A stretch of DNA of 64,000 nt from Candidatus Latescibacterota bacterium (GTDB lineage: Bacteria; Latescibacterota; UBA2968). Shown one piece after another: positions 14,788 to 32,555 of the stretch. Positions within the stretch are counted from its first letter, which is position 1. Every line of letters begins with the position of its first letter. The DNA lies in the NCBI GenBank assembly GCA_965208125.1, contig OZ242320.1, positions 3,040,001 to 3,104,000 of the forward strand. Reading direction: 5' to 3'. The translations under genes and the position numbers were made by a program. Under the pieces are notes generated by a model that was not told where the DNA came from, ran no database searches, and saw nothing but the letters and a program-made list of their open reading frames with translations.

Positions 14788-15987
14788 TTACGCAATCAAT
14801 GCCTGGTACACCAGTGTTTTAAATTCAGCGCGAATGCGATAATAATTTGCGGGCATAAATTGCGTGAGCAATAGCCCGACGAGTTCTTCTTCATAATCGA
14901 TCCAGAACGCAGTTGTTGCCGCACCACCCCAACGAAATGTTCCCACACTTCCGGGACCGCCAGCGGCAGCGTCGAGCAAAATCGCGCCTCCCAATCCAAA
15001 ACCTTCCCCCGATAGATTTGTCAGTCCCAGAGAGATGGGCATCAGTTCGTCGGGCAAGTGGTTCATTGTCATCAGTTCGACGGTTTTGCGTCCCAGAAGG
15101 CGTACGCCTTGAAACGCGCCTCCATTGAGCATCATGTGGCAGAAGCGAATATAATCAGAGGCTGTGGAGACCAATCCGCCGCCACCGGAAAAGAATTTTT
15201 GCGGACTGGAAAATTTGCTGGTCGCCGGGTCGTCAATTACTCGAATCCCACCTTCTTGTGCCGGGCCGTAATTTGTTGTAAACCGATGTCCCTGGCCCTC
15301 GCGCACCCAAAATTCCGTGTCTTCCATGCCGAGGGGATCTAAAATTCGCTCTCTGAAAAACGCATTGAGAGGCATGCCAGAGACAACTTCGACAAAATGC
15401 CCGAGTACATCGGTCGATACGCTGTAACGCCAGGCTGTACCCGGTTGATTCGCCAGGGGTAGCTTTGCCAGTGTTTGTACCATTTCTTTTGTCGAATGAT
15501 CTGGCCGATTAATTTTTGCCTGATTATACATTTGTTCGACGGGTGAATTGCCCAAAAAGCCATAGGTCATTCCCGATGTGTGGGTCATCAAATGGCGAAT
15601 TGTGATTTCTCGCTCCAGGTCCTCTGGGGGTACGCCTGTACCGGCGAAGACTTTTACATCATTCAATTCTGGAATATAATTCGATACGGGATCATCCAGT
15701 TGAAAAAGTCCCTCTTCAAAGAGCATCATGGCCGCGACAGTTGTGATCGGTTTGGTCATTGAATAAATCCGAAAGATCGTATCGCGCGTTGTGGGTACTT
15801 TTGTGTCTTGTGTTCCGAAACATGAAAAATGCGCGATTTTGCCCTGCCGACAAACCATCGTTATAATGCTGACGAGTTTGTCTTCGTCGATATAGCGCTG
15901 CATCACGCGATTGATGCGGTGCAGACGCGTAGCCGATAGTCCCACATCTTCTGGTGCAACGGTGGGAAGCCCTGGATCACTGTTCAA
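14788..15987 (-). CDS. Serine hydrolase, beta-lactamase class C-like
   Basis: SMTK catalytic motif, LMTHTSG, WRYS, WGGAA. Confidence 0.9.
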   Translation of the reverse strand: MNSDPGLPTVAPEDVGLSATRLHRINRVMQRYIDEDKLVSIITMVCRQGKIAHFSCFGTQDTKVPTTRDTIFRIYSMTKPITTVAAMMLFEEGLFQLDDPVSNYIPELNDVKVFAGTGVPPEDLEREITIRHLMTHTSGMTYGFLGNSPVEQMYNQAKINRPDHSTKEMVQTLAKLPLANQPGTAWRYSVSTDVLGHFVEVVSGMPLNAFFRERILDPLGMEDTEFWVREGQGHRFTTNYGPAQEGGIRVIDDPATSKFSSPQKFFSGGGGLVSTASDYIRFCHMMLNGGAFQGVRLLGRKTVELMTMNHLPDELMPISLGLTNLSGEGFGLGGAILLDAAAGGPGSVGTFRWGGAATTAFWIDYEEELVGLLLTQFMPANYYRIRAEFKTLVYQALIA

Positions 15988-16021: not shown

Positions 16022-17170
16022 TCAGTTCAGTCCATTTACCAGATCCGGTGGTATAGACGCCACATGAATCTGGGGCTGTCCACTCAGGTCGGATGTGAAC
16101 ACCAGCCATTGCATATCCGGAGAGGCGTAGGCGTGTGGATGCGCTTTTTTGACGAGAATTGAGGTGCGGGCGTCGCATACGACCGCATTTTTTCCCGTCT
16201 GGATGGATCCCAGCAGGAGCTTGCCGGATCCCTGCCAGTCATCGGCAAAAAAGTACTGGCCGCACGGAGATGTCCCCAGGTGATTAAATCGGTACCCGCG
16301 CGAGACGCTCCGGGGCGGTGCCCCGGCTTTTACGCCCAGCAGATTGCCCTTTTCGGGGGTGTAGTCGCCTTCTGCAAAATACCATTCCTCGGGGCTGTGT
16401 AGCCCGCGGGCGTTTGGGGCACGGACTGTGAGCAAGATCTCGTTCGTTCCCGCAATCCACGCCTCGTGTCCCACGATGCTGGGCGTATAAGGTTCCCCTA
16501 CCTGCAACCGCGTCACCTTTCCGCTCGGGATGTCCAGAAGAAATTCTGTGGCACCCTGTTCTCCGAAAATTACCGCCCTGGTACCGTCGGGCAGCACCTT
16601 GCATCCCCGGTTGTGCTGTACCATAATTTGCTTGCCCCAGGTGGGCTCGAACTGGGTGTGGGGGTTGCAAATATCCGGATCGGTGTGGATGAGATCCCGC
16701 GTGCCGGTCTTCAAATCCAGCAGTTCGATCCCGAACATCTGGGGTTCCAGGCTGAGGGTGACGCCATAGGCATAGTAGCGCTCGTCGGGAGACACTGTGT
16801 CCATCCCCCGGTGCTGAAAATCTTCGGGAAATTCAAAAATTACCTCCCATTCGCCCGTGGCGAGATCCACCCGCCGCAGTTCCAGGCATTTCCCCTCTCG
16901 AACATGGCGGTAGTAAAAGATCCCGGTGTGGCTCATCCCCGGTGCCCGCAGTCCCTGCCCCACAACCTCACTCTTCCAGGTCCCGAATTCGCAGGTCACA
17001 TATTCGGTATCGTTCGGGCCGGGTTTCGGATTTTGCCGTTCGTACACAAAAACTCGAGAGTCCGCCGAACAGTAGGGCTGTTCGCAGTAAATATTAGATT
17101 TTTCGAGTGGGTCGTCGGTGATCTGATAGACGACAGTGCCACTTGTATCTTCCTCAAGTATTCTGGCCAT
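16022..17170 (-). CDS. Oligogalacturonate-lyase-like beta-propeller protein
   Basis: CNPHTQFEP, GHEAW, FNHLG and C-terminal HPHAYASPD...FTSD; no signal peptide. Confidence 0.65.
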   Translation of the reverse strand: MARILEEDTSGTVVYQITDDPLEKSNIYCEQPYCSADSRVFVYERQNPKPGPNDTEYVTCEFGTWKSEVVGQGLRAPGMSHTGIFYYRHVREGKCLELRRVDLATGEWEVIFEFPEDFQHRGMDTVSPDERYYAYGVTLSLEPQMFGIELLDLKTGTRDLIHTDPDICNPHTQFEPTWGKQIMVQHNRGCKVLPDGTRAVIFGEQGATEFLLDIPSGKVTRLQVGEPYTPSIVGHEAWIAGTNEILLTVRAPNARGLHSPEEWYFAEGDYTPEKGNLLGVKAGAPPRSVSRGYRFNHLGTSPCGQYFFADDWQGSGKLLLGSIQTGKNAVVCDARTSILVKKAHPHAYASPDMQWLVFTSDLSGQPQIHVASIPPDLVNGLN

Positions 17171-17220
17171 AGCTGGTTTCCTTTTCTATCGTCCTCCTGG
17201 TTCTGGTGGCCAATGTCCTG

Positions 17221-18372
17221 TTATGGCTCAATCAGATTGTCGTTAATATAATCCCAGTTGAAATCAAATCCCAGACCTGGTAGCTGGGGGAGGATGACAT
17301 TGCCGTCATCATCCAGGGGATCGACAATGGAATTCAAATAGGGGGGTGGGGTTTCGTAGTCGAAGTCGGGACGCAAGAGGCCGCGTTCATAGTATTCACA
17401 AGTTGCTTCTGTTGTTGCGCCCAGGATTTGCATGTTTGCCCATCCGCCATAGTGCATTTCACACTGAATGCCGAAGGCCTGGGCTATGTTGACCATTTTG
17501 TAGCATCCCGTGATACCGCCATAGTTTTGGTCGATGCGCAGCATGTCAGATGCGCCCTGGAGTACCCATTCGGCGCGTGTGAATACGCCACCGGGAATGT
17601 GTTCGGGTGAGAGAATGGCGATGTCCAGCTCGCGGGTCAATCGTCGGTATGCTTCTGTTCGCGTTTCTACCATGGGATGTTCGAGCCAGTAATAGTTCAG
17701 TTTTTCCAACTCTCGACCGACCCAAAGCGATTGCTCTAAGGTATAAACGCCAAAGGGGTCTAACATCAAGACCATGTCATCGCCGACGGCTTCGCGCACG
17801 GCCTTGCATACTTCTATGTCTTCTTTGGGAAATCCGGGTACCTGTGGGGCAGGTTCCCAGGTGTGTGGATTCCAGCAGATGTACGCGTGAACTTTATAGG
17901 CTTTGTATCCCTGTTTTTTGCATTCGAGTGCATGTTCGGCATAGTCTTCGGGTTTGCCGATGTTGGGATAGGTGCTGGCATAAGCTTTGACTTTGTCGCG
18001 CGCACCGCCGAGGATCTTGTGTACGGGCAGGTCAACCATTCTGCCGAGCAGGTCCCAAAGGGCGCAATCGACTGCGCCCATCACATGCTCGGGCAAGCTG
18101 TGACCGAAAGTGACGAGTTGGTCCATCCAGTTCCAGATTGTTTCACGCGCAAGAGGATCTTCGCCGATTAACATGCGCTTGATTGGACCTTCAAGGTATC
18201 GCCGATCGCCGCCGACCATATATCCTTCGAGACCCTCATCTGTAGCGATTTTGAAGATTGAGCTTGCCGACTCTTTTTGCTCTTCTCCCCAGATGCCGTA
18301 GCCCCACTTACTCGGTCGAGACCTGCCGCCTGGCGTGCGGAATGTAATCACTTCGATGTCTGTAATTTTCAT
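17221..18372 (-). CDS. Mandelate racemase/muconate lactonizing enzyme family (enolase superfamily), probable acid-sugar dehydratase
   Basis: VDCALWDLLG, KVH, and metal ligands LD, LE, PE; C-terminal PGLG. Confidence 0.88.
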   Translation of the reverse strand: MKITDIEVITFRTPGGRSRPSKWGYGIWGEEQKESASSIFKIATDEGLEGYMVGGDRRYLEGPIKRMLIGEDPLARETIWNWMDQLVTFGHSLPEHVMGAVDCALWDLLGRMVDLPVHKILGGARDKVKAYASTYPNIGKPEDYAEHALECKKQGYKAYKVHAYICWNPHTWEPAPQVPGFPKEDIEVCKAVREAVGDDMVLMLDPFGVYTLEQSLWVGRELEKLNYYWLEHPMVETRTEAYRRLTRELDIAILSPEHIPGGVFTRAEWVLQGASDMLRIDQNYGGITGCYKMVNIAQAFGIQCEMHYGGWANMQILGATTEATCEYYERGLLRPDFDYETPPPYLNSIVDPLDDDGNVILPQLPGLGFDFNWDYINDNLIEP

Positions 18373-18468
18373 GGGGTCCTCAATTCAAAAGATGAAAAGG
18401 AACACAGATTGCTCGTGATGTTTCAATTTAGTTTTTTATACTGAAAAATCAAGGATAAGCGGATATCT

Positions 18469-20490
18469 CTACCAGGTGTGGATCCAGTGACCTCCCTCGG
18501 GAAACCAGATGAGGTCAACGATGGAGGAGGCGACGATGCCAGCGACATACCCCACCGTGATACCGATAAAAAAGGGTGCGGCGCGGCGGTAGAGCGCGAC
18601 CCCTCCAATGCGGAGCAGGATGAGTTTCGCCGCCCAGGTGAGGAATAGCGAAAAGGAATAGAATCGCAGGCCACGCGTGTCTTGAAAGACCAATCCGAGC
18701 GGGTGAATTGGCCACCAGGGAAGACGGTTGCGCAGAAGAATCAGAAGACTTGCCTGGAGGCCTCCTATCAGCCAGACGATCATTTTGGCGGGATCGAAGA
18801 CAGTGCGATCGGCGCGAAGGATATCTGATCGCATTGCGTTGTAGGAACCGACGGGACCTGCGCTCGAGCTGAATGGCGCAAGATGGAGGTTCTGTCCGCC
18901 ATAGTGATAGGCGATATAGATGATGGAGATGAATGAGGCGGCCATACCGACGACAAAGGCCAGCAAAGCCAGGTGAGGGAGGCGGGAAGATGTTCTGGTC
19001 TGTCTGCCGAGGAGCTTGAAGTGGTGGGGTAGCGCGGGCCACGCCGGTACGCGAGCGTTCCCGAAGAAACCGCAGGAGTTCACCAATCCGATGCCGATGA
19101 GGTTTTTCCGATCCAGATGCGCTGTGCCGACAAAGCTTGTCAGCAGTTCCCCGCCCTTGGCTCCATAGGGATTGGTGGTGGGGGGGAAGAGGTGGGTGAA
19201 CCCGGTGGCAGCGGTGAATTTGGCCACGGTGAAGTAGGCAATATAGAGCAGGAGTGTGTGAAACACAGCAACCGGATAGGCCATGCCAACTGCGTGCATC
19301 CACCCGATGATGTAAATTGTGGCGGCAAAAAACGCGATCAGTACAGCGCGATAGCGCCTCCTATCACCCGCTATGCGGTTACCAGTGCGCGCCGACTGCC
19401 ATACCTGGTGGAGATGCTCCCGTGTCGCCCAGACCGACCATATTACGAGCAGTACCATAGCGCCGTGGCTTTCGATCTCGATGATCTGTTCGGGGCGGGC
19501 CTGCTGGCCTGCCATGCCGACAGAGAAGCCCGTTCGGGTCATCAGGCCCAGTTTCAGGGTGGCGAGAAGTCGGATAAACCAGAAACTGAACAGAATATCG
19601 AGATCGCAGAAGTAGGTGAGTCCTACGACAGAAGGCAGGATGCGAATGGGGATGAATGGGTAGCCTTTGGCAATCTCTATCTGTTTGCTTCCGATGCCGC
19701 CATAGATGCCCAGAGGCGGTAGTTCGTGAAGGAAATAGCCCGCGATATTGTATAGAATGACGCCGAACACAGCGAAGAATCCTGCCCAGAAGATCTTTTT
19801 TTTGAAGATGGCAGGCACGCGGTCGTGTCCGTTGAACCCCGAAGTCAAGTGGATAGCGAACTGCCCGAGAGGATATGTCAGGCGCTCGGCATCTTCCCAC
19901 TGCCGTTGGAAGAGCATGCAGAGGCAGACTCCCGCGGTAAACAGGGCGATGGATACGCTCCCCCACCAGAACATGGGTTTGATCCACCCGATCCAGGGTA
20001 TCGACATGCCCGGAGAAAGACCGTCGAAGAAAGGCCGAATGACGCCCGTCTCTGTGTCTGTAAACGCCCACCAGGGAATAGCGCTGAAAAGGACCTCTTG
20101 CCACTGGTTTTCGGGAGACGCGTAATAGGTCGGGGTCGAGACGATAGTGGACCAGTAGGCTGCCCAGCCTTCAAGGGCAATGCCGGAGGAGATCCAGGAC
20201 ATACAATAGATGACCAGAAGCTCTCTGCTGCTGAGGGTGGCGGAAGGGAAGAAGGCTTTCAGAACGATATTTACAAAGAGCCAGAGGAAGAAAGGAATCA
20301 GCATCGCCATGGGGTATTGTGACTTTACAAGGGCGGAAGATCCCATGACCAGGCCTGTGTGATTGGTATAGATGTGCAAGGCAATGATGGTGACCACACC
20401 CAGGAGGACAGAACGAAGCGTGATGCGATCCGGTCTGGCGACTTCGACGTTTTCTGTCGGACTGATCCTCGGTGTATCCAGTGCTGACAT
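18469..20490 (-). CDS. DUF6785/DUF6784-type polytopic membrane protein
   Basis: Motifs QWEDAERLTYP and WWPIHPLG; C-terminus VDLIWFP. Confidence 0.75.
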   Translation of the reverse strand: MSALDTPRISPTENVEVARPDRITLRSVLLGVVTIIALHIYTNHTGLVMGSSALVKSQYPMAMLIPFFLWLFVNIVLKAFFPSATLSSRELLVIYCMSWISSGIALEGWAAYWSTIVSTPTYYASPENQWQEVLFSAIPWWAFTDTETGVIRPFFDGLSPGMSIPWIGWIKPMFWWGSVSIALFTAGVCLCMLFQRQWEDAERLTYPLGQFAIHLTSGFNGHDRVPAIFKKKIFWAGFFAVFGVILYNIAGYFLHELPPLGIYGGIGSKQIEIAKGYPFIPIRILPSVVGLTYFCDLDILFSFWFIRLLATLKLGLMTRTGFSVGMAGQQARPEQIIEIESHGAMVLLVIWSVWATREHLHQVWQSARTGNRIAGDRRRYRAVLIAFFAATIYIIGWMHAVGMAYPVAVFHTLLLYIAYFTVAKFTAATGFTHLFPPTTNPYGAKGGELLTSFVGTAHLDRKNLIGIGLVNSCGFFGNARVPAWPALPHHFKLLGRQTRTSSRLPHLALLAFVVGMAASFISIIYIAYHYGGQNLHLAPFSSSAGPVGSYNAMRSDILRADRTVFDPAKMIVWLIGGLQASLLILLRNRLPWWPIHPLGLVFQDTRGLRFYSFSLFLTWAAKLILLRIGGVALYRRAAPFFIGITVGYVAGIVASSIVDLIWFPEGGHWIHTW

Positions 20491-20581
20491 CCATAATTCC
20501 CGTTGGCTGGATCAATGCGTACCCATCAGGCGGAAAGAGTTCCTGAGATCGTGCTATCAGGGAAAGATCTGCTGATGAGTC

Positions 20582-22594
20582 TCATTCTTTCGACCAGGTG
20601 AAATCTCCTTCTTCCAGGGCGGTGAGGCCGGGCACTCCCCGATGCACTTCCAATGCCGTCCGGAAGATGCGCGATTTGCCCTTTGCTCTGAGGAGGATTG
20701 TGCCTCTGCTATCTGGAATGGGGTTGCCGGGGGTCCGCGCTGATGTGATTTCGAAGGGACCATCGGAAACGGCAAGTAGGCGCAGCCAAACCCGAGCGGA
20801 AATTCGCCAATCTACACAGAGAGTTCCGTCTGTAGAAGTGGTCTGGCGATTCCTGAGCCAGGCAAACACGCCGTAGTATGACAGAGGCGGGAAATCGAGG
20901 TTATCGATAACGTTTGATGGACGAACAATCATGCCGCCTTTAGCATGAAATACCCACGCGTACCGGTGGATGGTATCGGATGTGCAGCGATCTTCGATCC
21001 ATATGCAGGGCGGTTCGAACCGGATGCGGCGTTCCAATGCCACATCCTCGTACGCGTCTTCGATTACGGCAGATGCCAGTCGAGGATCTATTTCACGGAA
21101 TTCCAGCCGGGCCTTTTCCACAGGCTGCTGATTCTGCTCATCTACCATCAGGGTGTTATGCGACAATGTGCTTCTGTAATAGGCATGGATGTCGCTGACA
21201 GCATAGCCCGCTGTGCCGAGGTCGGGCGCGATTTGTACTCCGAGGGCCCTGAGATCGATGGATAGCTTATCGGGATGGTCGTGACCGGCTCCGTGCGCCC
21301 CTCCTTTGAACAAAAGATAGAAAGGGCCTTCGGCTGTGTCTTCTCGAAAGATGCCGAAGCCCATGGCCGAAAGATGGGTGGATCCCTGCGACAGTGGAGC
21401 TATGTCGATCTCATCAGGGCCGAAGGCGAGTGCGGTCAGGCTGTTACGGGGAATACCTCGCTTGTATATGGCGTTGAGCGTTTCTGCGAACAGATCGCCG
21501 CCGAGTTGTCCAGCAGCGTATTCGTAAACGTGTCTGTAGATGGCCAGAGAACGTGAACCAGGCGATCCCAGGTCGCCCACGCATGGCAGGTCGAGATTCT
21601 GGTCACACATGTGTACGGGTGCTTCGAGTAGCTTTTCAAAACGCGTCTGGATATCCTGGGTTACCTGACCTTGCTGGCGAAGCATTTCAAACACAGTGAC
21701 CATGGGGCAGATTGAGTAGAAATGGTAGAACATGGTGCCTTCAAACCAGAATCCATCCACTTTGCCTTCCGGGTCGGTTCTCAATCCATCGGTAAGTAGC
21801 GCAGATAGGCCTCCACGGTCGCCGCCCAGACCCATCGAAAGCCAGTCTTCATGGCCGGTCGCTTCGCCGGAGAGAGCCAGGCACGCACCCACATAACAGG
21901 TCATGTTGTGCGCGCCTGTACGTTCGAAAAATTGGATCTGCGAAGGCATCCCGGCTTCAAAGATCCCTTCGCGGATGGTTTGATGGTCGGTGCTGGAATA
22001 CACCTCGCTGTCGCGCGTCCAGGAGTAAGCGTTAGCTATTAGAGCCAGCACCTGGGCATCGTAAAGCGGCTGGAAATAGAGGGCGTCACCGTGGTTCCCT
22101 TCGCGGAGGTCTTCCCGGGTGAAGAACTGGGCTGCCAGGCGCATTCCCTCGGCTATCCACCTGGCATAGCGTTCATCTCCGGTGAGGCCGTAGAGCAGTC
22201 CCAGGCTGCGCATAAGGCGATAGGTACGTTCGTGGGTGAGCAGTGTCCAGGCCCGGTGTTGGACTTCACTTTCGTGGAGTGATTGATCTGCGGGATCCAG
22301 AAATCGATATGGACTCTGGGGATCATAGATCAGATGCTCGGCAGTGGTGTGCGAGTAGAAGTCGTGGCGCCACCCTATCCGTTCTTCGGGTAGCTGCGGT
22401 GGTTCTTTGAGTACAATCTCGGCTTCTTCTCGCATCTGTGAGAGGGAATCGGCGGCCCACTGCAGTGCGTCTGTTTTTCTGCGGATCTCTTTTAGGCGTT
22501 CTGCGCCAAAGAAAATTGTCGGCCAGACATCCTCGATGACCAGACCCGAGTCATAGGGCGATAAAGTGTAGGGCCATTGAAAGGTCTGGTTCAA
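20582..22594 (-). CDS. Heparinase II/III-family exo-lyase (oligo-alginate/uronate lyase-like), cytoplasmic
   Basis: HN motif, DGFWFEG..YHFY, GHDHPDKL, DLGTAGY, SHNTL. Confidence 0.85.
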   Translation of the reverse strand: MNQTFQWPYTLSPYDSGLVIEDVWPTIFFGAERLKEIRRKTDALQWAADSLSQMREEAEIVLKEPPQLPEERIGWRHDFYSHTTAEHLIYDPQSPYRFLDPADQSLHESEVQHRAWTLLTHERTYRLMRSLGLLYGLTGDERYARWIAEGMRLAAQFFTREDLREGNHGDALYFQPLYDAQVLALIANAYSWTRDSEVYSSTDHQTIREGIFEAGMPSQIQFFERTGAHNMTCYVGACLALSGEATGHEDWLSMGLGGDRGGLSALLTDGLRTDPEGKVDGFWFEGTMFYHFYSICPMVTVFEMLRQQGQVTQDIQTRFEKLLEAPVHMCDQNLDLPCVGDLGSPGSRSLAIYRHVYEYAAGQLGGDLFAETLNAIYKRGIPRNSLTALAFGPDEIDIAPLSQGSTHLSAMGFGIFREDTAEGPFYLLFKGGAHGAGHDHPDKLSIDLRALGVQIAPDLGTAGYAVSDIHAYYRSTLSHNTLMVDEQNQQPVEKARLEFREIDPRLASAVIEDAYEDVALERRIRFEPPCIWIEDRCTSDTIHRYAWVFHAKGGMIVRPSNVIDNLDFPPLSYYGVFAWLRNRQTTSTDGTLCVDWRISARVWLRLLAVSDGPFEITSARTPGNPIPDSRGTILLRAKGKSRIFRTALEVHRGVPGLTALEEGDFTWSKE

Positions 22595-23568
22595 AATGCA
22601 ATTCCCACTGAAAACCGGCTCACATTGGCGAAAAACTCGTTCCTGGTAAAGGAATAATCGATCAGGACCTGCCTCTCGCCGATACGTTGCATCACGCCGG
22701 CTCCCGCGGTCAGGCTTTCCATATCGTGATTGAACTTGTAGCCAACCCGGAGCGCCAGCATCTCCTGAAACCAGTATTCTCCGCCCAGGTAAATCCGCTC
22801 GCTGAAATCGCGCGGGTGGATGGCGTCGAATGCCAGCGATAGAGAATGTGAGGGGGAGTCAAAGAGTTCCATTGCGGCGCCGATATGGAATGTCAGGGGA
22901 AGCTGAAAACCAATTTTCTGGTATTCGATTTCTGGCGAGAAGTTCCGAATGTAGATCCCCAGTCTCAGGCTCCTCAACCCGGTGTAGTAGATGGTCCCAA
23001 ACGTGAAGTTCACCGCATTCGCTTTGTTATCAACGGCCAAGCTGGATGTCCCCGCAGGTGAGATTATACTTGAGCCCAGATGCTCGGACACATACTTGAT
23101 CTGACTCCCGATGAAGAACTTGTTTGTCAACTGCTTGGAATAAGCAAGTCCCACAAAATAGGCTCCCACGTCGATGTTTCCCGTCTCGGTAAATCCCTTC
23201 TCGTTCCCGGCGACCTGCGTCCCGATCAATTCACCGTAATCGATAGCGCCGAAGTTCACTGCAAAAATCCCGTGAGATGCTTTGTAGGCAGTCCCCAGTG
23301 CCGTATAGTTGATATCCGCGATCCACTGGACTCGGTGTGCGACCATCTGGACCTTAGAGTCCATGCGGGCCATGCCGGCCGGATTGTAGAACATAGCATC
23401 GGCGCCGTCACCTACCATCGAATACGCCCCGCCCATTGCCTCCGCCCGCGCACTGAGACCAATCTTCAGAAATTGAAACCCCGTCTGGGCCAGTTTCTTT
23501 TTCTGTGCCTCGGCAGGTGTAACCAGACACAGCAACAGTATCAGAATTAAACCCATACATTTTTTCAT
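22591..23568 (-). CDS. PorV/PorQ-family outer-membrane beta-barrel
   Basis: Signal peptide; motif FLKIG.SARA.AMGGA...FYNPAG; C-terminal Phe. Confidence 0.85.
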   Translation of the reverse strand: MKKCMGLILILLLCLVTPAEAQKKKLAQTGFQFLKIGLSARAEAMGGAYSMVGDGADAMFYNPAGMARMDSKVQMVAHRVQWIADINYTALGTAYKASHGIFAVNFGAIDYGELIGTQVAGNEKGFTETGNIDVGAYFVGLAYSKQLTNKFFIGSQIKYVSEHLGSSIISPAGTSSLAVDNKANAVNFTFGTIYYTGLRSLRLGIYIRNFSPEIEYQKIGFQLPLTFHIGAAMELFDSPSHSLSLAFDAIHPRDFSERIYLGGEYWFQEMLALRVGYKFNHDMESLTAGAGVMQRIGERQVLIDYSFTRNEFFANVSRFSVGIAF

Positions 23569-23596
23569 TGTTTTTCTCCTTCTCCGAGACCGTCGA

Positions 23597-25731
23597 TTAC
23601 CTGACGATGACGAATTTGACAAAGCTGGATTCTCCGCTTGGCGTCTCTATATGCGCAATATAGACGCCGCTGACAACGATCTGCCTGGTTTCGGTCGTCA
23701 AATCGCTCCAGGGCTCATCTCCCGAACCATCTGTGTGCTCCAGGACTTTGACCAGGTCTCCGCTTAGAGTGAAGATACGGATTGTACATTCTGGCGGCAG
23801 CCCTGCGAACAGGATCTTGTCATTTTCTCCTGGAAACTGCAGTCCTGCCTTCTGCTGCCGTAATATTGTAGGGATTGGGCACGACTCTGATATCGGCCAA
23901 TGTATTTCCTGGCGCTCGCGTCAGAGAGACCGGTTCCGTCGTTCGGTTATACAGGATGCCGCTTTCGACGCTCTCGCCGGGTTGAAGTCCATTCTCGATG
24001 CCCGGCTGATTCTGCGACCCATCGTCAAACGCTGTGACAGCGTAATAATAAGAAACGCCCCGCTGGGCGGTGATGTCGTCAAACGAGTGGACGCTGTTTC
24101 CCAGAGACTCGTGAATCACCGTGAACGTCGTGTCGGGACTCCCAACCGCTCGATACACCCTGTATCCGGCAAAGTCGGACGCGGATTCGGATTCGGACCC
24201 CCACAAAATCTGGACTTTATCGGGGCGCCCCCATACCTCAATGGATGGCGGCGGCGGAGCCTTGGGGACGTTGTAATTGTGTCTTACGGCCCACTCCGCG
24301 TTGTAGATGTTCTGGAACAGCGAGTCCTTACCCGTGGCGACCCAGTTGTCTTTGGCGCGATCAACGGCCGTCGGAATGAGATCCGGAACGTCTGGCCCAC
24401 GGGCGGGATCTTGTCTTCGCCTTCCCAGGTCAGCGTTCCATCTTTCCATCTTTGTCCGATATCCCACCTCATCTCGCGGGATATAGAGCCGCCGACAACG
24501 GCGAATACCACCCGGAAATCATCTCCGGCCTTCATCTCGTCGAACGGTCCCAGAGACATATAGATGGCCCCACGTCCCTTCGTTGCATCTTGTACCCATT
24601 TGATCTTTCGCTCATCCATTCGCGACTGGTAGCGCACACGGCCCTCGCGGGGACGTTAAGGCCGAAGTAGTAAGCCTTCTGACCCTCCACCAGTTCGGGA
24701 AAACCGTAGTGGAAGGAGCTGTATTCCAGTTCGGTCACTGTTGGATCGTTCTGGTCATGCTGTTTGGCTGTGGTGTATTTCTGCAGTCCGGATGCAAATA
24801 CGTGTGGCTGCTCTCGGTCGTCGGTCGGGTCGTCAACAGATTTGTCAACGTGTAGAATGGCGATGCCAACGTAGGATGGTTCTTTGATAAACCCCGTCGT
24901 AGGATCGGGATTTCCGAAAGTGTCGTATTGCTGACCCCTGTTCCAGGCGGGATAATTGTAGGCGACCCGCAGCGAATCGCCTTCCCGTTCGCCATACGTT
25001 GTGCTCCAGCCGAAATTTCCCATATCCTGATTGACCCATGCAGCGAGGGCAAAATATACGCCATTCAGGGTCTGGGCGGGCAGATCCACCTGTATCCCGG
25101 ACGGCGTCAGGTACTGACCTGTGGTATTCTTAAAAGTCCAGTCATAAAGCACATAGTCGTCGTGGTTGACCTGCGAAAAAACGAACACCTTCTGATGGAT
25201 CGTGATCCCGACCGAGGTTCGAATCCAGGATTCGATTAACTGATCAGCACCTTTTCCCCCACTCGAATCGATATAGTCTGGATTGACTTCATCCCCTTCT
25301 AATGGAAAGAAGGGCTGGATGGGAGCACCCTGAACGGATATAGATGGAGGCTGGAACCTCACATACCTTCTAATCGTAAACCCATCTACCTCGACGGGCA
25401 TATTGTCAAAGGCCTCTTCACCGTTATAGACGCTCGTACCGCTGGTCTTGAAGCCCCAGGTAGTACCCTTCTCATCGGTCCAGTCCCTAACCGCAACCCT
25501 CCACGCGATATTCTCCATGAATCGGTTTCCATTGTAGTAGAATTGCCGGTATGATCTGAGGGGCCTAGACATATCGCCGGAATCGAAAATGGCGCTCCAC
25601 ATTCGCCCGATTCTCACCCACTTGAACACATCCGCCCGGGCAGTGTTGTCGAGGATCAGGAAGGCAATCAATCCAAAAACGATCGCCACCAGTGCCTTCG
25701 GGATCCTTATCCTTTTCACTGAATATTTCAT
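23597..25731 (-). pseudogene. About 710-aa secreted protein with an Fn3-like domain and a T9SS type-A-like CTD, split by three frameshifts (near 24647, 24385 and 23850)
   Basis: Consecutive frames join 25731-24647, then EGRVRYQ...KIPP, then PDLIPT...VVPNPY, then LFAGLPPECTIRIFTLSGDLVK...SGVYIAHIE...KFVIVR* with the stop at 23597. Confidence 0.8.
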
Positions 25732-25772
25732 GGCTTTTCCTTCCTCTTAACTGTCAGAAACAGAACAGTTTT

Positions 25773-28736
25773 TTAAAAACTCACCTTGATTCCGAAGAAG
25801 ATATCCCTCGGAGGCAAGAAGGTCGCGCTTTCTGCGTTTGGCATTATGATATGGCTGTCCTCTCCTCCGATGGCTCCCATCCTGTCGTTCCCCACTGGAT
25901 TTTCATAGGCCGGGGATTCGGGCAGGTTCAAGGATGTCATATAGTCCTCCCTGTCGGAGGTGCTGACAAAACCCGCGTTCCCATTGAAGTGTTTCTGGTT
26001 GAACAGATTCGTAATATCCACAAACAGGCCGACATCTACTCCTCTCGCCGCGAAGTCCTTGGATATCCGCGCGTTCCAGTTCGAGTAGTTCTCCCACTGG
26101 AGGTTGTTCTGGATACCTGGAATCTGGTTTGGATTGTAGGTGATCCAGCCCCCGGCTCTCCAATTGTAGAAGAGGCTGAATCGAAATCTCTCCAGCGGCT
26201 TGAATCCGGCCACTTCTGGTCCGGAATCCGGCGGCACCAGGAGCATCACATTCGCCCGGAATGAGGGCCGGGTTTTAGGCCTGCTCTGGTATGGGTCCTG
26301 CAGGCCAAAAAGTCTGTGTTGAACCGGGTCCTCGTAGTAGTGCCGGCGCCCGATAAACCCACTGGTCAGGACCATGTAGTTGTAGTTCGCCCATCCTGTG
26401 AACCACTGCCCCACGCTTTTATCCACTCTGATTTCGAAACCCCTGATGTCCGCGTAGTTGTTGTTTTCAACGGTGGTATAGACCACACTTCCATCTACAT
26501 TGTTGTAGGTGACATTGCCAGCCTGATCGGCGACATCCTTATAGTATCCGGCCAGATGAATGAGCACCGTATTGAACAGATTGTGGTCGTACCCCAGTTC
26601 ATAAGCGATGGTTCGTTCCCACTCTGTGCTCGGGTTGCCCAGATAGGTTATCTTGCCCGGAAAACTTCTTCGGACGCCGTAGTAATGCTCTGTTCTGGGT
26701 ATGCTGTAGAAGTGACCGTAGTTGAAATAGATCTTTGAATTCACTGTGATGGGGTGTGATACGCCCAGCCGTGGGCTGAATTTGAGGTGGCTCTTAGCAG
26801 GCTCCGTGGGAACGACTTCCTCAAAGTCTTCCTGGTATTTCGCCGTCAGGAATTTGGAATAGCGATCCACTGAATACCAGTCTGTGGCGGGCGTGGCGTA
26901 ATCCATACGAACCCCAATATTCGCGATCATGCCCTCCACCTCCAGCTTGTCCTGGGCGTACGCGCTGAACCGTTTGGGGATCTTTTCGTACGTGTTGATC
27001 CAGGTGTAGGGTGTGATGCCCGGGTTGTAGATGGCATTCCAGATCGCCATGTCGTTATAGACGTAGTGAAATCCCGCTTTGGCCTGATTGTAACGGCCGA
27101 TCTGGCTGGTGATATCCACCCGGATATTCGTGGTCGTAATAATCGAGCTGTCACGAGCCGTCGAAAGATGCATGCCCATACGCATTCCGTCCTGGGCTTC
27201 AATTGAATCAAACCACAAACCCAGCGGTGCTTCATCTACCATCATTGGACCGAACTGGTATTGCGGCGTGCGGTCCCTTATGGGCAGAGCAGTCGTACGG
27301 TACTCGGATTCCATCTGATCTACCCTGAGGTTATAGAAAGTAGATCTGCCCAGCGTGTGTGTGAGTACGAAACCCAACGAGGTCCTCTTGAGGCTGAACA
27401 GAGAAAACCTGGATGGTGTATAGATCGTCGCGCCGCTATAGCTGGTCGCGTCTGCCAGTGCCTCGATGGCGTTGTCGTAATAGAGCCCTGTGTTGCCGTC
27501 TGCGACTGACTCGATATTGCTGTATCCTCCAACAACAGTGAGTTTCATTGATGGGATGATATTCAAAATCAGCTTCAGCGTCGAGTTGTCTTCCCGATGG
27601 TTGTCTCTTGACATCGGATAGGGATAGACATTGATATCCGTACGGTGTGATGCAAAGAAGCTCAGCTTCCTGCTGGCGGGAATCAGAGGGCCGCCGATAC
27701 TCGCGTCTCCAATATGGTCCGCTTTGTCCCCATCCTTCAAAGGACGCGGTCCGCCTTCGGCGAATTTTCTGAACATAAATAGCTGCTGGGCTTCTTGGGG
27801 CGACATGTCATTTGAGGGATCGTCATCTTCTGTATATCGCCTGGCTATCTCATTCCAGCCTACAAATTGCCTTTCCTGTAGCTGGGTTTCCTCATCCCAC
27901 TTGCCCGTACCTTCAAAGGCAACTTCAGGATCGAGAAAAGCCCGCAGATAGTAGTTATCTGCGCTATACCATGAGGGTCCGAAATGCTTTTTGGCAGGGG
28001 GGCTGTAGCGATAATCAACCGACCCGTGGTAACGGTCCTGGGCAGATTTTGTGATCACGTTGATCACACCTGATCTCACATTTCCGTATTCCGCATTGAA
28101 TCCACCGGTGATAATTGAGATCTCCTGTACGGCACTCAGGTTGAGGGAGGTCAGCGTGGGTCTGTTCACCCGTTCATCCACCATCAGGATGCCATCCACC
28201 ATCATCGCGACCTGGTTTTGCCCACCCCCTCGGACCACCATATTCTCGATTCCCGGCTGCGTGTTCAGAAACTGCTCGACCTTCACAACTGCAGGGATCT
28301 CCCTCACCTGTTCACCCTGGGCAATTACTTCGCTGGCGGAAACGTCCATCTGGACCACTTCCCTTTCAGCCGTGATCTGGATCTCCTGCCCCTCTATACT
28401 GCTAACCTGCAATGAGAAGTTGATAGGAACCGTACGTCGTCCCTGCACCAGCACATCCGTTTTGCTCACAGTCGTGTATCCGACCATGGATGCCCGGACC
28501 ACATGCTTGCCCGGCGAAACGTTCAGGATGTTGTAAACGCCTTCCGCATCGGTTGAAGCCCCCAGCGATGTGCCTTCGATGATTACATTCGCCCCCGGTA
28601 GGGGATCTCCGGTCTGCGCGTCTGTGACGACACCGCGGACCTTACCTGTCTCTTGAGCAAACAGGCCTCCCTGGACGAGGAAGAGGGAAAGCGCAATGCT
28701 GAGTAGCGGTAGAAAACACCTTCTTGTCCGTTCCAT
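25773..28736 (-). CDS. TonB-dependent receptor with an N-terminal carboxypeptidase-regulatory-like domain
   Basis: G.V.G.VTD..TG.PLPGANV; plug motif VRGG...GGFNAEYG...SGVINVITK; SPRLG; C-terminal Phe. Confidence 0.93.
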   Translation of the reverse strand: MERTRRCFLPLLSIALSLFLVQGGLFAQETGKVRGVVTDAQTGDPLPGANVIIEGTSLGASTDAEGVYNILNVSPGKHVVRASMVGYTTVSKTDVLVQGRRTVPINFSLQVSSIEGQEIQITAEREVVQMDVSASEVIAQGEQVREIPAVVKVEQFLNTQPGIENMVVRGGGQNQVAMMVDGILMVDERVNRPTLTSLNLSAVQEISIITGGFNAEYGNVRSGVINVITKSAQDRYHGSVDYRYSPPAKKHFGPSWYSADNYYLRAFLDPEVAFEGTGKWDEETQLQERQFVGWNEIARRYTEDDDPSNDMSPQEAQQLFMFRKFAEGGPRPLKDGDKADHIGDASIGGPLIPASRKLSFFASHRTDINVYPYPMSRDNHREDNSTLKLILNIIPSMKLTVVGGYSNIESVADGNTGLYYDNAIEALADATSYSGATIYTPSRFSLFSLKRTSLGFVLTHTLGRSTFYNLRVDQMESEYRTTALPIRDRTPQYQFGPMMVDEAPLGLWFDSIEAQDGMRMGMHLSTARDSSIITTTNIRVDITSQIGRYNQAKAGFHYVYNDMAIWNAIYNPGITPYTWINTYEKIPKRFSAYAQDKLEVEGMIANIGVRMDYATPATDWYSVDRYSKFLTAKYQEDFEEVVPTEPAKSHLKFSPRLGVSHPITVNSKIYFNYGHFYSIPRTEHYYGVRRSFPGKITYLGNPSTEWERTIAYELGYDHNLFNTVLIHLAGYYKDVADQAGNVTYNNVDGSVVYTTVENNNYADIRGFEIRVDKSVGQWFTGWANYNYMVLTSGFIGRRHYYEDPVQHRLFGLQDPYQSRPKTRPSFRANVMLLVPPDSGPEVAGFKPLERFRFSLFYNWRAGGWITYNPNQIPGIQNNLQWENYSNWNARISKDFAARGVDVGLFVDITNLFNQKHFNGNAGFVSTSDREDYMTSLNLPESPAYENPVGNDRMGAIGGEDSHIIMPNAESATFLPPRDIFFGIKVSF

Positions 28737-29120
28737 ATTTCTCTCCTCTTTTTTCCAACTTGTGATACAACGTGTTAAATTTTATAGCATTTAACCTCCT
28801 TTCTACCGAAAGGCCCGATTCGGTTGGCAATTTTTGTTGCTGAAAATGTTTAGGAAATTTAATACTAATCTTATGAATGAACTTTGACTGGTCCATTGTT
28901 TGCTGAAGCCGTAGCAGAGTCGGAAAAAGGATTTTCCTGCTACGAATTGCATACTATGGGAGCGATATCCCCGCCGAGATCGCCCAGTCAAGATTCTATA
29001 TTTAATTAGTATAATTTAATAAAATATCAAGTATAGTTTATTATCATAATTAGTAGATGTCAATATTTTATTTTTCTATCCGATGGGCTGCTTTATGGTG
29101 GGCGATACTGGATTCGAACC
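28702..29120 (-). repeat. TBDR 5' leader plus first codons; diverged copy at 32047-32514
   Basis: Direct alignment by eye shows long identical blocks, a ~30-nt indel and a 19-nt inversion. Confidence 0.9.
29035..29063 (-). promoter_or_regulatory. Sigma70-type promoter for the TBDR operon
   Basis: TTGACA-17 nt-TAAACT on the minus strand. Confidence 0.6.
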
Positions 29121-29172
29121 AGTGACCTCCTGCTTGTAAGGCAGGCGCTCTAACCAGCTGAGCTAACCGCCC
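29096..29172 (-). tRNA. tRNA-Val(TAC), copy 1
   Basis: GGGCGGTTAGCTCAG...CT-TAC-AA...GGTTCGAATCC...CCCACCA; 77 nt cloverleaf. Confidence 0.97.
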
Positions 29173-29180
29173 GGATAGTG

Positions 29181-29229
29181 TTAGCGCAAATTAGCCTAAT
29201 AACGGGTTCAAATTTTGGGTCACAGATCC
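29181..29229 (+). mobile_element. Isolated IS3-like right end
   Basis: 25-nt core GGTTCAAATTTTGGGTCACAGATCC is identical to 54847-54871, where it follows an OrfB fragment. Confidence 0.6.
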
Positions 29230-29274
29230 TGATTTGAATACTTCTTCAGTCATGCTTATCTCCTATACTCAATA

Positions 29275-29312
29275 AAACAGCCCTGTCTCCGCTGAAAGAG
29301 ACAGGGCTGTTT
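29275..29312 (-). terminator. Intrinsic terminator after the 692-aa gene
   Basis: 15-bp perfect stem AAACAGCCCTGTCTC/GAGACAGGGCTGTTT. Confidence 0.8.
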
Positions 29313-29384
29313 GTGTGTACCTCCGGTAAGGGAAGCTATTCGAGCTTTCCAATTTCCCCTACCGCGAGGTCTGGGGTTGATTGG

Positions 29385-31463
29385 TTAATTGATGGTCACG
29401 CCAAACGCATCCATAAAGATCAGAAAATCGGGCACCCCGATTTCCCCATCCATATTCAGATCGTATTTGGCATCGTATCTGTCATCGCCAAGTTTGGAAT
29501 CAAAGGCACTGACAAAGAGCACAAAATCAGCAACATTAACTATTCCGTTGCCATCAAAATCAGGTGTAAGGGCTGGTTTGAGCAACAAATCAATTCCAGT
29601 ATTGAGCGACACGAACACTGGATGTGTCACATATTGAATACGTGCTTCAACCATTCGTATAGTAGCACCTGAGAACTGGTCAGTTGTACGCAAATTTAAT
29701 GTAAACAGATGACCAGGTGAATAGTGAGTATGGTATGAACGGACTCGCACTCGCTTGATATCTGACTCTGTTGCAATAGGGACAAGATAATAAGAGGAAT
29801 GTGCGACTTCGATGTGATCTATCTGAGAAGAATCATACTCAAAGTCAATATATATCCGATGGACAGGTTCATCAGGCTCAGTGCTGAAAATCTGGATTGG
29901 GACGATCTCATTCGGCGCAACCTCGATTGAATTAACCGATTGATCACCACGAGCAAGGTTTAAATCCATAGAAAGCGTTGTGGGATTGACCGCAGGGGGA
30001 TCAACAGGTAAAGGTGTGGGTGGATCAGGCTGCACTGGTGGCGTGGGCGGTTGCACTGGGGGTTTAACTTCTGGCGGCGTGATATTCCGCAAGACGAAGC
30101 CCTTGAAACCAAGTGGTTTATTATCGCCACTCTGCATGTATTGATCTACTTGAACAATAGCTGGCTTTGAACGTCTAAGGTAGCCTTGACCAGAAGGAGC
30201 AGACTTAGGTGTATCATTTGTAAATCCAAAAGCATCATCATCTGTAAAGTGTGCAGCCCACACACCTTCCCTATCTTGTATCGGTTCGTAGTCGTCTGGA
30301 CCTCTGCCAACGGATATAAGAAAGGCTCGTTCAGCATCGAGATGAGCCCCACGTCCAATCTTACTATAATCATCAACAACATGATCGTAATCCACTGCAA
30401 CTCTATCAGTACTTGTCACTGCTTTGTTTAATGTCAGTGTGACATTCCTACCGCTGATAGAAACGGTTGATACTTTATACCCATGGCCAATATCTCCGTT
30501 CAAAGACGAACCGTTTATAATCATCGTGAAGTCCATAGGAGAAGGCGGTTTGGCTGTTTTTAGCAGTTCATCATAAGCAATCGTGACAGTGTTGCCATTT
30601 ACATTGCTTTCCGATGCTATGATGATAGGGGCAGGATTGATACTGGGAGAATGGTTCAAATTTGGAAGATTCGTAGCAGTTCCACCAATATTTGCTGTAA
30701 TTGTAGAACCGCCATGACGTACCAAGGTGTTTGCAAGCAATACTAATCCTGAACCCTTTGGGACGTTGCCAGTGCTGCGAAATGTCAATGTGTTGGTTCC
30801 GCCGCCTGAGTTATAATTGGCAATTCTATTATGAGTGGTGTTGTCTGACATTTTTCTCGCCCTGAATGTAACTCGAGGCGTGCCTGTGACTGTAACAATC
30901 TTAGAAAATTTCATCTTCACTGTAATGATACGATCCGCAATTGCTGCTTGCTCATATAACTGATTGTCGTCTGGTCCTGATATAGTTGCACTCAGAACCG
31001 TATTGGTCAAATTATTGGTTACAGATGTAGCAGTGAAACTCGGTGTGCTACCCAGGTTTTTACCTCCATCCTTCATCGTGTTGTCATAAGCAACCGTGAC
31101 AACTGCACCCCAGCCTATAGGCTCCATAACATAAACCTTCACCTCTGTTGACACATCATTATATCCCCAAGGATGGAGAGGGACATTTTCGCCATCTGCT
31201 GTGACAGTGATTCCGCTCGTGTGGAAGCTCCAAATATTGGCGGGCGGATTTGATATTGTAATCGGGGTAGGGTCACTTGTAAAATTCAATACTACGCAGA
31301 TGCCAGAGAGACGGCCCTGTGCATCTGGCTTGAAAGAATCCAATCTCATCTTGGCATTTTGAAGTGCTCCCCCATTCGGTTGCCCCCATGATTCTCCAAT
31401 AAACACTGCAAACAACATACTCATTGCAAAAACAAACCTGGTAAACCTTGTCGCTTTTTTCAT
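29385..31463 (-). CDS. Secreted surface protein with SwmB-like repeats, a Pro-rich linker, a cohesin-like domain and a dockerin-like tail
   Basis: Signal peptide; VNGNTVTIAYDE.L...VTLTL...V.VDY repeat; PPVQP linker; paired DFDGNG/DLNMDG...DF motifs; AT-richer than the core genes. Confidence 0.75.
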   Translation of the reverse strand: MKKATRFTRFVFAMSMLFAVFIGESWGQPNGGALQNAKMRLDSFKPDAQGRLSGICVVLNFTSDPTPITISNPPANIWSFHTSGITVTADGENVPLHPWGYNDVSTEVKVYVMEPIGWGAVVTVAYDNTMKDGGKNLGSTPSFTATSVTNNLTNTVLSATISGPDDNQLYEQAAIADRIITVKMKFSKIVTVTGTPRVTFRARKMSDNTTHNRIANYNSGGGTNTLTFRSTGNVPKGSGLVLLANTLVRHGGSTITANIGGTATNLPNLNHSPSINPAPIIIASESNVNGNTVTIAYDELLKTAKPPSPMDFTMIINGSSLNGDIGHGYKVSTVSISGRNVTLTLNKAVTSTDRVAVDYDHVVDDYSKIGRGAHLDAERAFLISVGRGPDDYEPIQDREGVWAAHFTDDDAFGFTNDTPKSAPSGQGYLRRSKPAIVQVDQYMQSGDNKPLGFKGFVLRNITPPEVKPPVQPPTPPVQPDPPTPLPVDPPAVNPTTLSMDLNLARGDQSVNSIEVAPNEIVPIQIFSTEPDEPVHRIYIDFEYDSSQIDHIEVAHSSYYLVPIATESDIKRVRVRSYHTHYSPGHLFTLNLRTTDQFSGATIRMVEARIQYVTHPVFVSLNTGIDLLLKPALTPDFDGNGIVNVADFVLFVSAFDSKLGDDRYDAKYDLNMDGEIGVPDFLIFMDAFGVTIN

Positions 31464-31533
31464 TTTATTCTCCTATCTTAATTGTCTTACATTCTGAATG
31501 ATAACGTTTGCCGGATTAGGCCAAAATTGCAAA

Positions 31534-32550: not shown

Positions 32551-32555
32551 CTTTA

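Follow-up and report, generated by a model that had tools for sequence, protein, structure and literature searches.

Gene content of the locus

The window analysed here is a stretch of 64,000 nucleotides (nt) from the genome of a Candidatus Latescibacterota bacterium (assembly GCA_965208125.1, contig OZ242320.1, positions 3,040,001 to 3,104,000). [quoted passage not shown] The label MID is used throughout for the second of these, a tail-bearing secreted protein of about 711 amino acids (aa). An initial annotation, made from the letters of the window, had listed the seven genes in this order and orientation, and had pictured an uptake machine whose substrate-binding lid is secreted by the T9SS and held on the cell surface by a dedicated PorV barrel. 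The order and orientation are as it gave them, and the genes are as follows, read 5' to 3' along the minus strand.

25773..28736, minus strand: TBDT, 987 aa, with CarbopepD_reg_2, Plug and OMP_b-brl_3 matches
23597..25731, minus strand: MID, gene for a secreted protein of about 711 aa, with a signal peptide, an N-terminal region of about 440 aa, a fibronectin type III (Fn3) domain and a T9SS C-terminal domain (CTD)
22591..23568, minus strand: PorV/PorQ-family outer-membrane barrel, about 325 aa, NF033709; the longest open reading frame (ORF) begins at 23622
20582..22594, minus strand: heparinase II/III / PL17-type lyase, 670 aa, PF07940
18469..20490, minus strand: DUF6785+DUF6784 polytopic membrane protein, 673 aa (DUF6785 287 bits, DUF6784 71 bits)
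17221..18372, minus strand: enolase-superfamily enzyme, sugar-acid dehydratase type, 383 aa (MR_MLE_C 124 bits, MR_MLE_N 38 bits)
16022..17170, minus strand: propeller-like protein, 382 aa (PF14583 23 bits, TolB propeller repeat E 5e-4)

The absence of a SusD lipoprotein, also remarked upon in the initial annotation, is borne out by the finding that none of the 49 window ORFs scanned (14 + 35) matches a SusD family. Neither sprA nor PorK/L/M/N nor PorU was found among the scanned ORFs of the window, the rest of the genome not having been searched for them. A scan of the locus for promoters and terminators gave a signal no higher than that of shuffled sequence, and the sole match of an Rfam scan 5' of the transporter was a tRNA. 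The closest relatives of the window are four loci in Latescibacterota metagenome-assembled genomes (MAGs), with 93-95% DNA identity.

Conservation of the three-gene unit

Related loci were found through MID, using one genome per species. The search yielded 325 relatives, of which the best 80 led to 76 loci; its query was an alignment of 16 MID sequences sharing the motif DFAGYRVYR, so that the loci are biased towards this motif. Their carriers are labelled Latescibacterota, KSB1, Calditrichota, Marinimicrobia/Fidelibacterota, Ignavibacteriota/Melioribacteraceae, Bacteroidota, Rhodothermales and WOR-3.

Among the 85 MID genes of at least 500 aa in these loci (near-duplicate loci included), a transporter of the same TBDT subfamily lies directly upstream of MID in 63 of 74 assessable cases (E 1e-138 to 0), and in 61 of 76 the gene directly downstream is PorV-like. 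The complete ordered triad of TBDT, MID and PorV-like barrel accompanies 56 of the 67 MID genes for which all could be assessed. Spacing within the unit is tight, with a median gap of 29.5 nt between TBDT and MID and of 13 nt between MID and barrel (62 MID-barrel pairs), and two to four triads occur per MAG or contig in several cases. Recurrence in dozens of loci puts the arrangement far outside what chance would give. The survey of candidate phyla of the Fibrobacterota-Chlorobiota-Bacteroidota (FCB) group that the initial annotation had called for finds a conserved unit.

The 11 exceptions to the ordered triad fall into three groups (L055/L058, L066/L070 and L068/L076). In L055 and L058 a small lipoprotein gene intervenes between MID and barrel. 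ORFs of about 190-220 aa, belonging to no known family, occupy this position in L055 (5198-5866), L058 (9802-10431) and L060 (2065-2628); those of L055 and L058 are related to each other (E 3e-18), and both begin with a lipobox-like N-terminus. In L068 and L076, which come from lineages other than that of the window, a gene for the sortase PorU lies directly upstream of the TBDT (576 and 552 bits, cutoff 420), and in L076 a LacI-type gene is found further upstream of PorU.

Some FCB-type cassettes sit in MAGs with odd labels (Actinomycetota, archaeon, Planctomycetota), as at L008 when set against L007, at L055 and at L032. L008, labelled Actinomycetota, mirrors L007, labelled Calditrichota, with equal gene lengths and near-equal scores, and such oddly labelled carriers are likely to be mislabelled or contaminated bins.

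The secreted protein

An intact relative of 711 aa, P0001, stands in for the window copy of MID, to which it is 96% identical over residues 1-365. An exhaustive HMMER search collected 226 MID representatives at 50% identity (E<=1e-3), mostly 690-780 aa long, and a word-indexed search returned 99 matches whose source names, where given, are "hypothetical protein" or "fibronectin type III domain-containing protein". When 17 sequences were scanned against Pfam, the 13 members about 690-770 aa long all stayed below the curated cutoffs, and the three longer multidomain relatives that passed one did so via other domains only. By these searches, MID is absent from Pfam and NCBIfam as a model.

The common layout of the family is a signal peptide, a variable N-terminal region of about 440 aa, an Fn3 domain and a conserved C-terminal domain. 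The signal peptide, recognized by reading as Sec-type, is MKYSVKRIRIPKALVAIVFGLIAFLILDNTARA, ahead of the mature part, and a lipobox is missing in 43 of 44 MID proteins. Both the Fn3 domain and the T9SS CTD had been called in the initial annotation, and both hold at the level of profiles. A PDB profile search places Fn3 at profile positions 482-561 (against 3mpc, E 1.8e-8) and matches the last 100 or so residues to the CTD of PorZ (5m11_A, residues 668-758, E 6.4e-5). Models of sorting domains find the tail with mixed success: TIGR04183 was matched in 7 of 12 members and exceeded its cutoff of 23 bits in two, with P0001 at 17.9 bits; the NCBIfam PorZ model was matched at the C-terminal end by 4 of 12; and PF18962 was matched in 4 of the 46 sequences of the alignment used for the Pfam scan of the family. 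An hhalign comparison of 44 MID tails with 14 canonical CTDs of neighbouring cargo gave 95.4% (E 1.8e-8, 74 columns). Because of the TIGR04183 and PorZ model matches and this profile-profile alignment, the tail is classed as a divergent type A T9SS sorting domain, closest to the retained tail of PorZ. It is a subclass of its own in one respect, since MID tails mostly fail the generic CTD models that neighbouring cargo in the same loci pass easily.

Conservation is uneven along the protein. Mean pairwise identity is 55.6% in the CTD, 48% in Fn3 and 33% in the N-terminal region, and a CTD that is the best conserved part of MID is what a retained, barrel-bound tail would predict. The MID subfamily of L066, L070, L068 and L076 carries an extension of 6-10 residues past the usual KFVIVR end.

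The N-terminal region had no match in the PDB profile search or in an Atlas search, and the Atlas search with MID returned same-family unannotated clusters only. Its weak domain matches are confined to Ig-like or DUF11-type sandwiches. A crude propensity profile scores 7% of the residues as helix-like and 34% as strand-like; in two helical controls the helix-like share is 46-47%. Part of the region recurs in T9SS cargo of 1000-1600 aa that also carry beta-helix/DUF1565, BNR, LRR, PMP-repeat, dockerin or carbohydrate-binding (CBM) modules, and its consensus includes conserved acidic and histidine motifs, such as an NHDDY block.

The transporter and the barrel

In the window TBDT a signal peptide and a carboxypeptidase-regulatory-like N-terminal domain precede a plug and a large barrel, with matches to CarbopepD_reg_2 (67 bits), Plug (27.9 bits, cutoff 23.9) and OMP_b-brl_3 (28.6 bits, cutoff 27). 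Against the SusC/RagA model TIGR04056 it scores 50.2 bits where the cutoff is 368, over residues 32-244 only, and none of five triad transporters reached that cutoff. A 32-member TBDT profile compared with the PDB matched generic TBDT plug and barrel chains, together with chains of the N-terminal domain, and no SusC barrel chain; among the plugs and barrels matched are those of PhuR, PqqU, YncD and PfeA. By these matches the transporter is not a member of the SusC family and belongs to a distinct non-SusC subfamily. Between the N-terminal domain and the plug, the family consensus shows a conserved stretch, EVxVxAERE, in which Ala123 is invariant and which may bear some likeness to a TonB box.

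The barrel gene was initially called a PorV paralogue. Its membership of the wider family is secure, with 191 bits against NF033709 (cutoff 90) and E 2.1e-6 against the PorV chain 6h3i_F in the PDB, but it falls below the equivalog cutoffs of both PorV (NF033710, 66 bits against 250) and PorQ (NF033711, 84 against 220). The match to the PorP/SprF model is weak (35 bits against 90.55), as is one to Toluene_X/FadL. The ORF spans 22591-23622, and the likely start codon is the ATG at 23568, found together with a GGAG motif 28 nt past the MID stop; the signal peptide is MKKCMGLILILLLCLVTPAEA. All 17 triad barrels sampled belong to NF033709 (149-228 bits), and none of them reached the PorV, PorQ or PorV2 equivalog cutoff, PorQ being the top equivalog in 15 of the 17.

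Co-divergence of transporter and secreted protein

Co-phylogeny was followed in 44 complete triads, with five near-duplicate loci dropped and trees built in FastTree. In this sample the transporters share a mean pairwise identity of 41.7%, the MID proteins one of 38.2% and the barrels one of 45.4%. The distance matrices are strongly correlated, with r of 0.95 for TBDT and MID, 0.87 for MID and barrel, and 0.89 for TBDT and barrel, and none of 2000 permutations gave values as high. The TBDT and MID trees have 30 of 41 splits in common and no supported conflict, compared with a mean of 0.26 common splits when labels are shuffled. Divergence of the MID N-terminal region follows the transporter: the partial correlation with TBDT distance, given the barrel, is 0.785, as opposed to 0.014 with barrel distance, given the TBDT.

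In one KSB1 MAG with two triads, all three genes within each triad point to the same foreign nearest relative. Locus L058 (4467-17834) has two tandem triads whose barrels are 96% identical, their transporters being 42% and their MIDs 38% identical, which suggests gene conversion or replacement of the barrel.

Sugar-related genes around the unit

In the window, the triad is followed by four genes. The lyase gene overlaps the barrel gene by 4 nt, as initially reported, and its PF07940 match (74 bits, cutoff 24) agrees with the original assignment to heparinase II/III lyases; a PDB comparison, however, ranks PL17 alginate lyases first among solved structures (E 1.5e-12), ahead of heparinase III (E 1.7e-5). 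The match to the NCBIfam oligoalginate lyase model is weak. There is no hydrophobic segment at the N-terminus, and because no signal peptide is seen the lyase is probably located in the cytoplasm.

The DUF6785 and enolase-family proteins that come next had both been correctly named. Hydropathy gives the DUF6785+DUF6784 protein at 18469-20490 about 11 hydrophobic segments; it is a candidate inner-membrane importer. A second DUF6785+DUF6784 paralogue lies at 10254-12248 on the plus strand; both copies have 10-11 hydrophobic segments and stand beside sugar-acid/sulfatase-type genes, and such proteins may be an uncharacterised family of inner-membrane sugar transporters. DUF6785 was considered as a member of the conserved cassette and rejected, as it accompanies the triad in four Latescibacterota loci only. 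The enolase-superfamily enzyme has sub-cutoff matches to gluconate, galactonate, arabinonate and mannonate dehydratases. The last gene had been described as an Ogl-like propeller, an identity that was rejected: its PF14583 match lies below the cutoff of 30 bits and covers 44 residues (331-374) only.

The flanks of the related loci were scanned in 45 cases, covering 242 of 271 selected ORFs. A glycoside hydrolase (GH), polysaccharide lyase (PL), CBM or sulfatase gene is present in the flanks of 28 of these loci, and five more have LacI- or GntR-type regulators only. The families include GH29 fucosidases, GH2, GH20, GH27, GH28, GH31, GH32, GH43 and GH63-like enzymes, along with GH88, GH95, GH97, GH106, alginate lyase, heparinase-type lyase and sulfatases. 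Loci of the fucosidase, GH20, GH2/GH43, alginate-lyase and sulfatase kinds all carry one and the same MID family. In 10 loci a regulator of the LacI, GntR or hybrid two-component (HTCS) type is found directly upstream of the TBDT. No SusD family was matched among the 242 flank ORFs.

One recurring layout, in Ignavibacteriota- and Bacteroidota-labelled loci (L061-L065, L067 and L072), opens with CBM_11/CBM_4_9 proteins whose T9SS tails are canonical, continues with the triad, and has past it a ROK gene, a GFO-type oxidoreductase, GH20, a sodium-solute symporter and an amidohydrolase. This layout looks like an amino-sugar or chitin-type locus.

Proposed mechanism

The interpretation that we favour, at a probability of roughly 0.5, is that the locus is an operon of the polysaccharide-utilisation type, with the conserved triad as its front end and MID as a surface partner that captures glycan and is held by the barrel. 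The non-SusC TBDT would import an oligosaccharide. MID would be exported by Sec and then by the T9SS, and its uncleaved, PorZ-like tail would be held at the surface by the adjacent PorV/PorQ-family barrel. The variable N-terminal region would capture substrate for the co-diverging TBDT, in a role like that of SusD or of a surface glycan-binding protein (SGBP). The DUF6785/6784 protein would then move the sugar over the inner membrane, and the PL17-like lyase and enolase-type dehydratase would process a uronate-containing glycan in the cytoplasm. Four elements of this scheme are inferred: that MID is exported by the T9SS, that the barrel retains its tail, that it binds glycan and that it touches the TBDT; the same goes for calling it a "lid" on the transporter. 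The lid and the dedicated barrel, both put forward in the initial annotation, are the weakest links of the model, and the barrel looks generic.

Several observations weigh against this interpretation. The barrel tree has only 21-23 splits in common with those of TBDT and MID and shows 6-7 supported conflicts with them, and the partial correlation between the distances of MID tail and barrel is 0.20. The co-phylogeny test suggested at the outset for the three genes accordingly succeeds for TBDT and MID and leaves the barrel as the more exchangeable member. Even the congruence and correlations that do exist are expected from tight linkage and shared descent; they show modular inheritance, not contact. 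The N-terminal region of MID has no detectable relative of known function, so that glycan binding is argued by exclusion. In 12 of the 45 flank-scanned loci, several from Marinimicrobia among them, there is no recognisable sugar gene. Two of the exceptional groups depart from the expected unit: L066 (2-6739) and L070 (1-14859) are tandem arrays of 3-6 MID paralogues with no TBDT or barrel in view, and L068 (2-12154) and L076 (836-13639) have the order PorU, TBDT, PorV-like, MID, MID. The loci were ascertained through MID, and their frequencies do not extend to members of the TBDT subfamily or barrels that lack it. All 76 carrier loci come from MAGs, some with doubtful labels. Finally, the window's own copy of MID is broken.

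Reading frame of the window copy

A single protein of about 710 aa with a CTD ending SGVYI...KFVIVR had been expected from the first reading of the window. The ending is indeed present, in the last frame, but the gene is not one ORF: it is read in four frames, owing to three 1-nt indels that are unique to the window in an alignment with four Latescibacterota loci (L001-L004).

~24649, minus strand: deletion
~24387, minus strand: deletion
~23851, minus strand: insertion

The MID genes of L001-L004 are 95-96% identical in DNA to that of the window and have an intact frame, and the intact protein is 709-711 aa long in these four close relatives, at 95-98% identity, and in P0001. The window copy is therefore either recently inactivated or mis-sequenced.

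The possibility that the window locus is a decaying remnant, with MID a true pseudogene and the cassette no longer working in this genome, has in our estimation just short of an even chance. Over 11.6 kb the window and L002 differ by six indel events, three of them intergenic, three in MID and none in the five neighbouring genes. The three MID indels are hence the only coding ones, and simple arithmetic gives a chance of about 0.006 that three random coding indels would all fall in this gene. The clustering argues for real decay, and a nearby 3.4-kb insertion with an insertion sequence (IS) remnant points to recent rearrangement. Set against this, codon changes in MID on the window lineage number 27 synonymous to 8 nonsynonymous, compared with 15-26 to 6-12 in intact relatives, so the gene is no more relaxed than theirs; all three indels lie in short homopolymer contexts, as do sequencing or polishing errors; and the neighbouring genes are intact.

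The rearranged site lies at the 5' end of the transporter gene. Direct copies of a repeat about 590 nt long, with 81-98% identity, are found at 28702-29180 and 32047-32640, around an insert at 29181-32046. Within the repeat are tRNA-Val(TAC), at 29096-29172 and 32556-32632, and the opening 35 nt of the transporter gene. The 3.4-kb insert between the copies codes for a SWM-repeat/dockerin protein of 692 aa and for an HTH_21 remnant of IS3 type. L001-L004 have one copy of the repeat at this site and no insert.

Alternative roles for the barrel and MID

Decay would concern the window copy; other explanations concern the unit as such and dispute that MID is a glycan-capturing partner held by the barrel. 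According to one of them, which we consider unlikely, the barrel is an extra PorV-type shuttle or a FadL-like channel, and the MID tail is cut by PorU, with the protein then released or lipid-anchored. For type A cargo, PorV has been portrayed as a shuttle (PMC11205867, PMC10202324). Barrels are exchangeable between divergent triads, as the L058 pair illustrates, and their tree conflicts with those of TBDT and MID; PorU stands beside the cassette in L068 and L076; and the window barrel has its weak Toluene_X/FadL match. A shuttle of this sort is harder to square with a tail that is the most conserved segment of MID, that belongs to a subclass mostly failing the generic models neighbouring cargo pass, and whose best match among solved structures is the retained tail of PorZ, or with a barrel gene that comes after MID with a median gap of 13 nt (62 pairs).

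The tree conflicts and the partial correlation of 0.20 do argue against a strictly cognate barrel. A strictly cognate, co-evolving pair of tail and barrel was rejected on these grounds and on the 96% identity of the L058 barrels; nor does the barrel, called dedicated in the initial annotation, look cargo-specific.

It is similarly doubtful that MID works on the cell surface as an enzyme from a family not yet described, be it lyase, hydrolase or esterase, and cuts the polymer there, leaving the TBDT to take up the products. T9SS cargo in PUL-like loci, that is, those resembling polysaccharide utilisation loci, are often enzymatic, and the flanks examined here hold, in L019, a GH5 that bears an FlgD_ig tail and, in L021, an M12 peptidase. 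The acidic and histidine motifs of the N-terminal region, the NHDDY block for example, would suit an active site of this kind, and no family assignment rules catalysis out. The varied sets of carbohydrate-active enzymes (CAZymes) beside one MID family nevertheless argue against one fixed enzyme activity. The N-terminal region is also the least conserved part of the protein (33%), it occurs as a module fused to separate catalytic-type modules in larger proteins, and its weak domain matches are limited to Ig-like or DUF11-type sandwiches.

Export through a TonB-dependent transporter is reportedly the route of Oar/PopC in Myxococcus. A cassette acting as a secretion or attachment module, in which the TBDT-type barrel serves export or is a T9SS accessory like PG0534, the TonB-receptor-like protein needed for T9SS function in P. 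gingivalis (PMC5445135), and MID and barrel form part of a surface attachment complex, could draw on the adjacent PorU of two loci, but is very improbable given the importer plug and barrel features of the TBDT and the occurrence of several paralogous cassettes in a genome. Each of these has a sugar regulator and a CAZyme set of its own, a pattern that belongs to substrate-specific uptake and not to a core part of a secretion system.

Other features of the window

Downstream of the propeller-like gene lie four further co-oriented genes, which may be a continuation of the operon, judging by their orientation and short gaps.

14788-15987, minus strand: beta-lactamase-fold protein (Pfam match)
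13960-14769, minus strand: xylose-isomerase-like TIM barrel (Pfam match)
13225-13947, minus strand: sulfotransferase (Pfam match)
12255-13214, minus strand: ArgZ-like Rossmann protein (Pfam match)

Further along, at 6808-9696 on the plus strand, is a gene for a 962-aa S8 subtilase with two choice-of-anchor D / HYDIN-type Ig domains, in which no T9SS tail was detected at the thresholds used; the protein is a probable surface or secreted one. At the other end of the window, a region of low GC content (0.36-0.47) at 50476-63897 resembles a defence island. It holds DndB/C/D/E (55483-60437), AbiU/AIPR (60569-62266), PDC-S57 (53141-53989), HEC-09 (50476-51129) and a Mutator-family transposase (51344-52519).

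Comparison with known systems

To our knowledge, the SusC/SusD pair is confined to Bacteroidota, and both the prediction of PULs and the general picture of glycan uptake rest on it. Large uncultured FCB phyla degrade sulfated and algal glycans, and we know of no recognised marker for their uptake loci. If the proposed reading of the triad is true, the TBDT and MID pair would be a PUL marker for Latescibacterota, KSB1, Calditrichota, Marinimicrobia/Fidelibacterota, Ignavibacteriota and their allies, and type IX secretion would gain a new role, in assembling a nutrient importer. The T9SS itself is found across the FCB superphylum (PMC11205867).

No description of the cassette was found in the literature searched, most subscription journals being outside its coverage, and the accessible text of the Caldithrix genome paper (PMC5317091) is silent on such clusters. 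The ingredients are familiar ones, namely a TBDT with a surface partner and a CTD on a PorV-family barrel; it is the conserved combination, and the MID family itself, that are unannotated in Pfam and NCBIfam.

The closest parallel in gene organization is SusC/SusD. There, too, a large TBDT with a carboxypeptidase-regulatory-like domain has the gene for a surface accessory directly next to it, the two form a co-diverging pair, and a genome carries many such pairs, set among CAZymes, sulfatases and LacI/GntR/HTCS-type regulators. The components differ. The transporter described here lies outside TIGR04056, and MID is neither a SusD nor a lipoprotein; it carries Fn3 and a T9SS tail, and a PorV/PorQ-family barrel is the third member of the unit. 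The SusD fold is helical, whereas MID appears strand-rich by its crude propensity profile.

For the tail and barrel, the better models are PorZ-PorQ and PorU-PorV, where type A CTDs are kept on a PorV-family barrel: the tails of PorU and PorZ are described as retained and bound to PorV and PorQ (PMC10202324). The MID tail is PorZ-like and the triad barrels lean towards PorQ, although MID and PorZ show no similarity outside the tail and the barrel stays below the PorQ and PorV cutoffs. Unlike those pairs, MID and its barrel occur in multiple copies per genome, and their link is with a transporter and sugar genes instead of with the secretion machinery. The initial annotation had invoked SprB and SprF instead, and the analogy holds insofar as a locus-specific PorV-like barrel stands beside its cargo gene there as well (PMC10202324, PMC11205867). 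It concerns type B tails, however, and the MID tail is type A-like, on a transporter-linked cargo of about 700 aa and not a giant adhesin, so that PorZ/PorQ is the closer comparison.

Partners of transporters other than SusC offer a third line of comparison. In Neisseria, the TbpA-TbpB system reportedly relies on Slam, a dedicated outer-membrane protein that brings the partner to the surface, with the three genes clustered. BtuB is likewise a TBDT served by a surface-exposed non-SusD partner, BtuG, which acts as a lid on it in the "pedal bin" manner (PMC10404256). BtuG and TbpB are lipoproteins that follow lipoprotein pathways, whereas the display of MID would use the T9SS and a PorV-family barrel, and the substrate here would be a glycan in place of a vitamin or an iron protein. 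In the carbohydrate utilisation (CUT) loci of Proteobacteria, a TBDT lies beside CAZymes and regulators without SusD (PMC1790865); compared by description, and in the accessible text of that paper, these loci are not reported with a conserved secreted partner and a PorV-family barrel.

Taken beside these systems, the triad may be a third architecture for TonB-dependent glycan capture, next to SusC/SusD and the lipoprotein-lidded transporters. In this tentative proposal, to which we give somewhat less than even odds, at least eight SusD-less FCB lineages would pair their transporter with a T9SS-exported Fn3 partner whose uncleaved tail is docked on a PorQ-like barrel next to the transporter.

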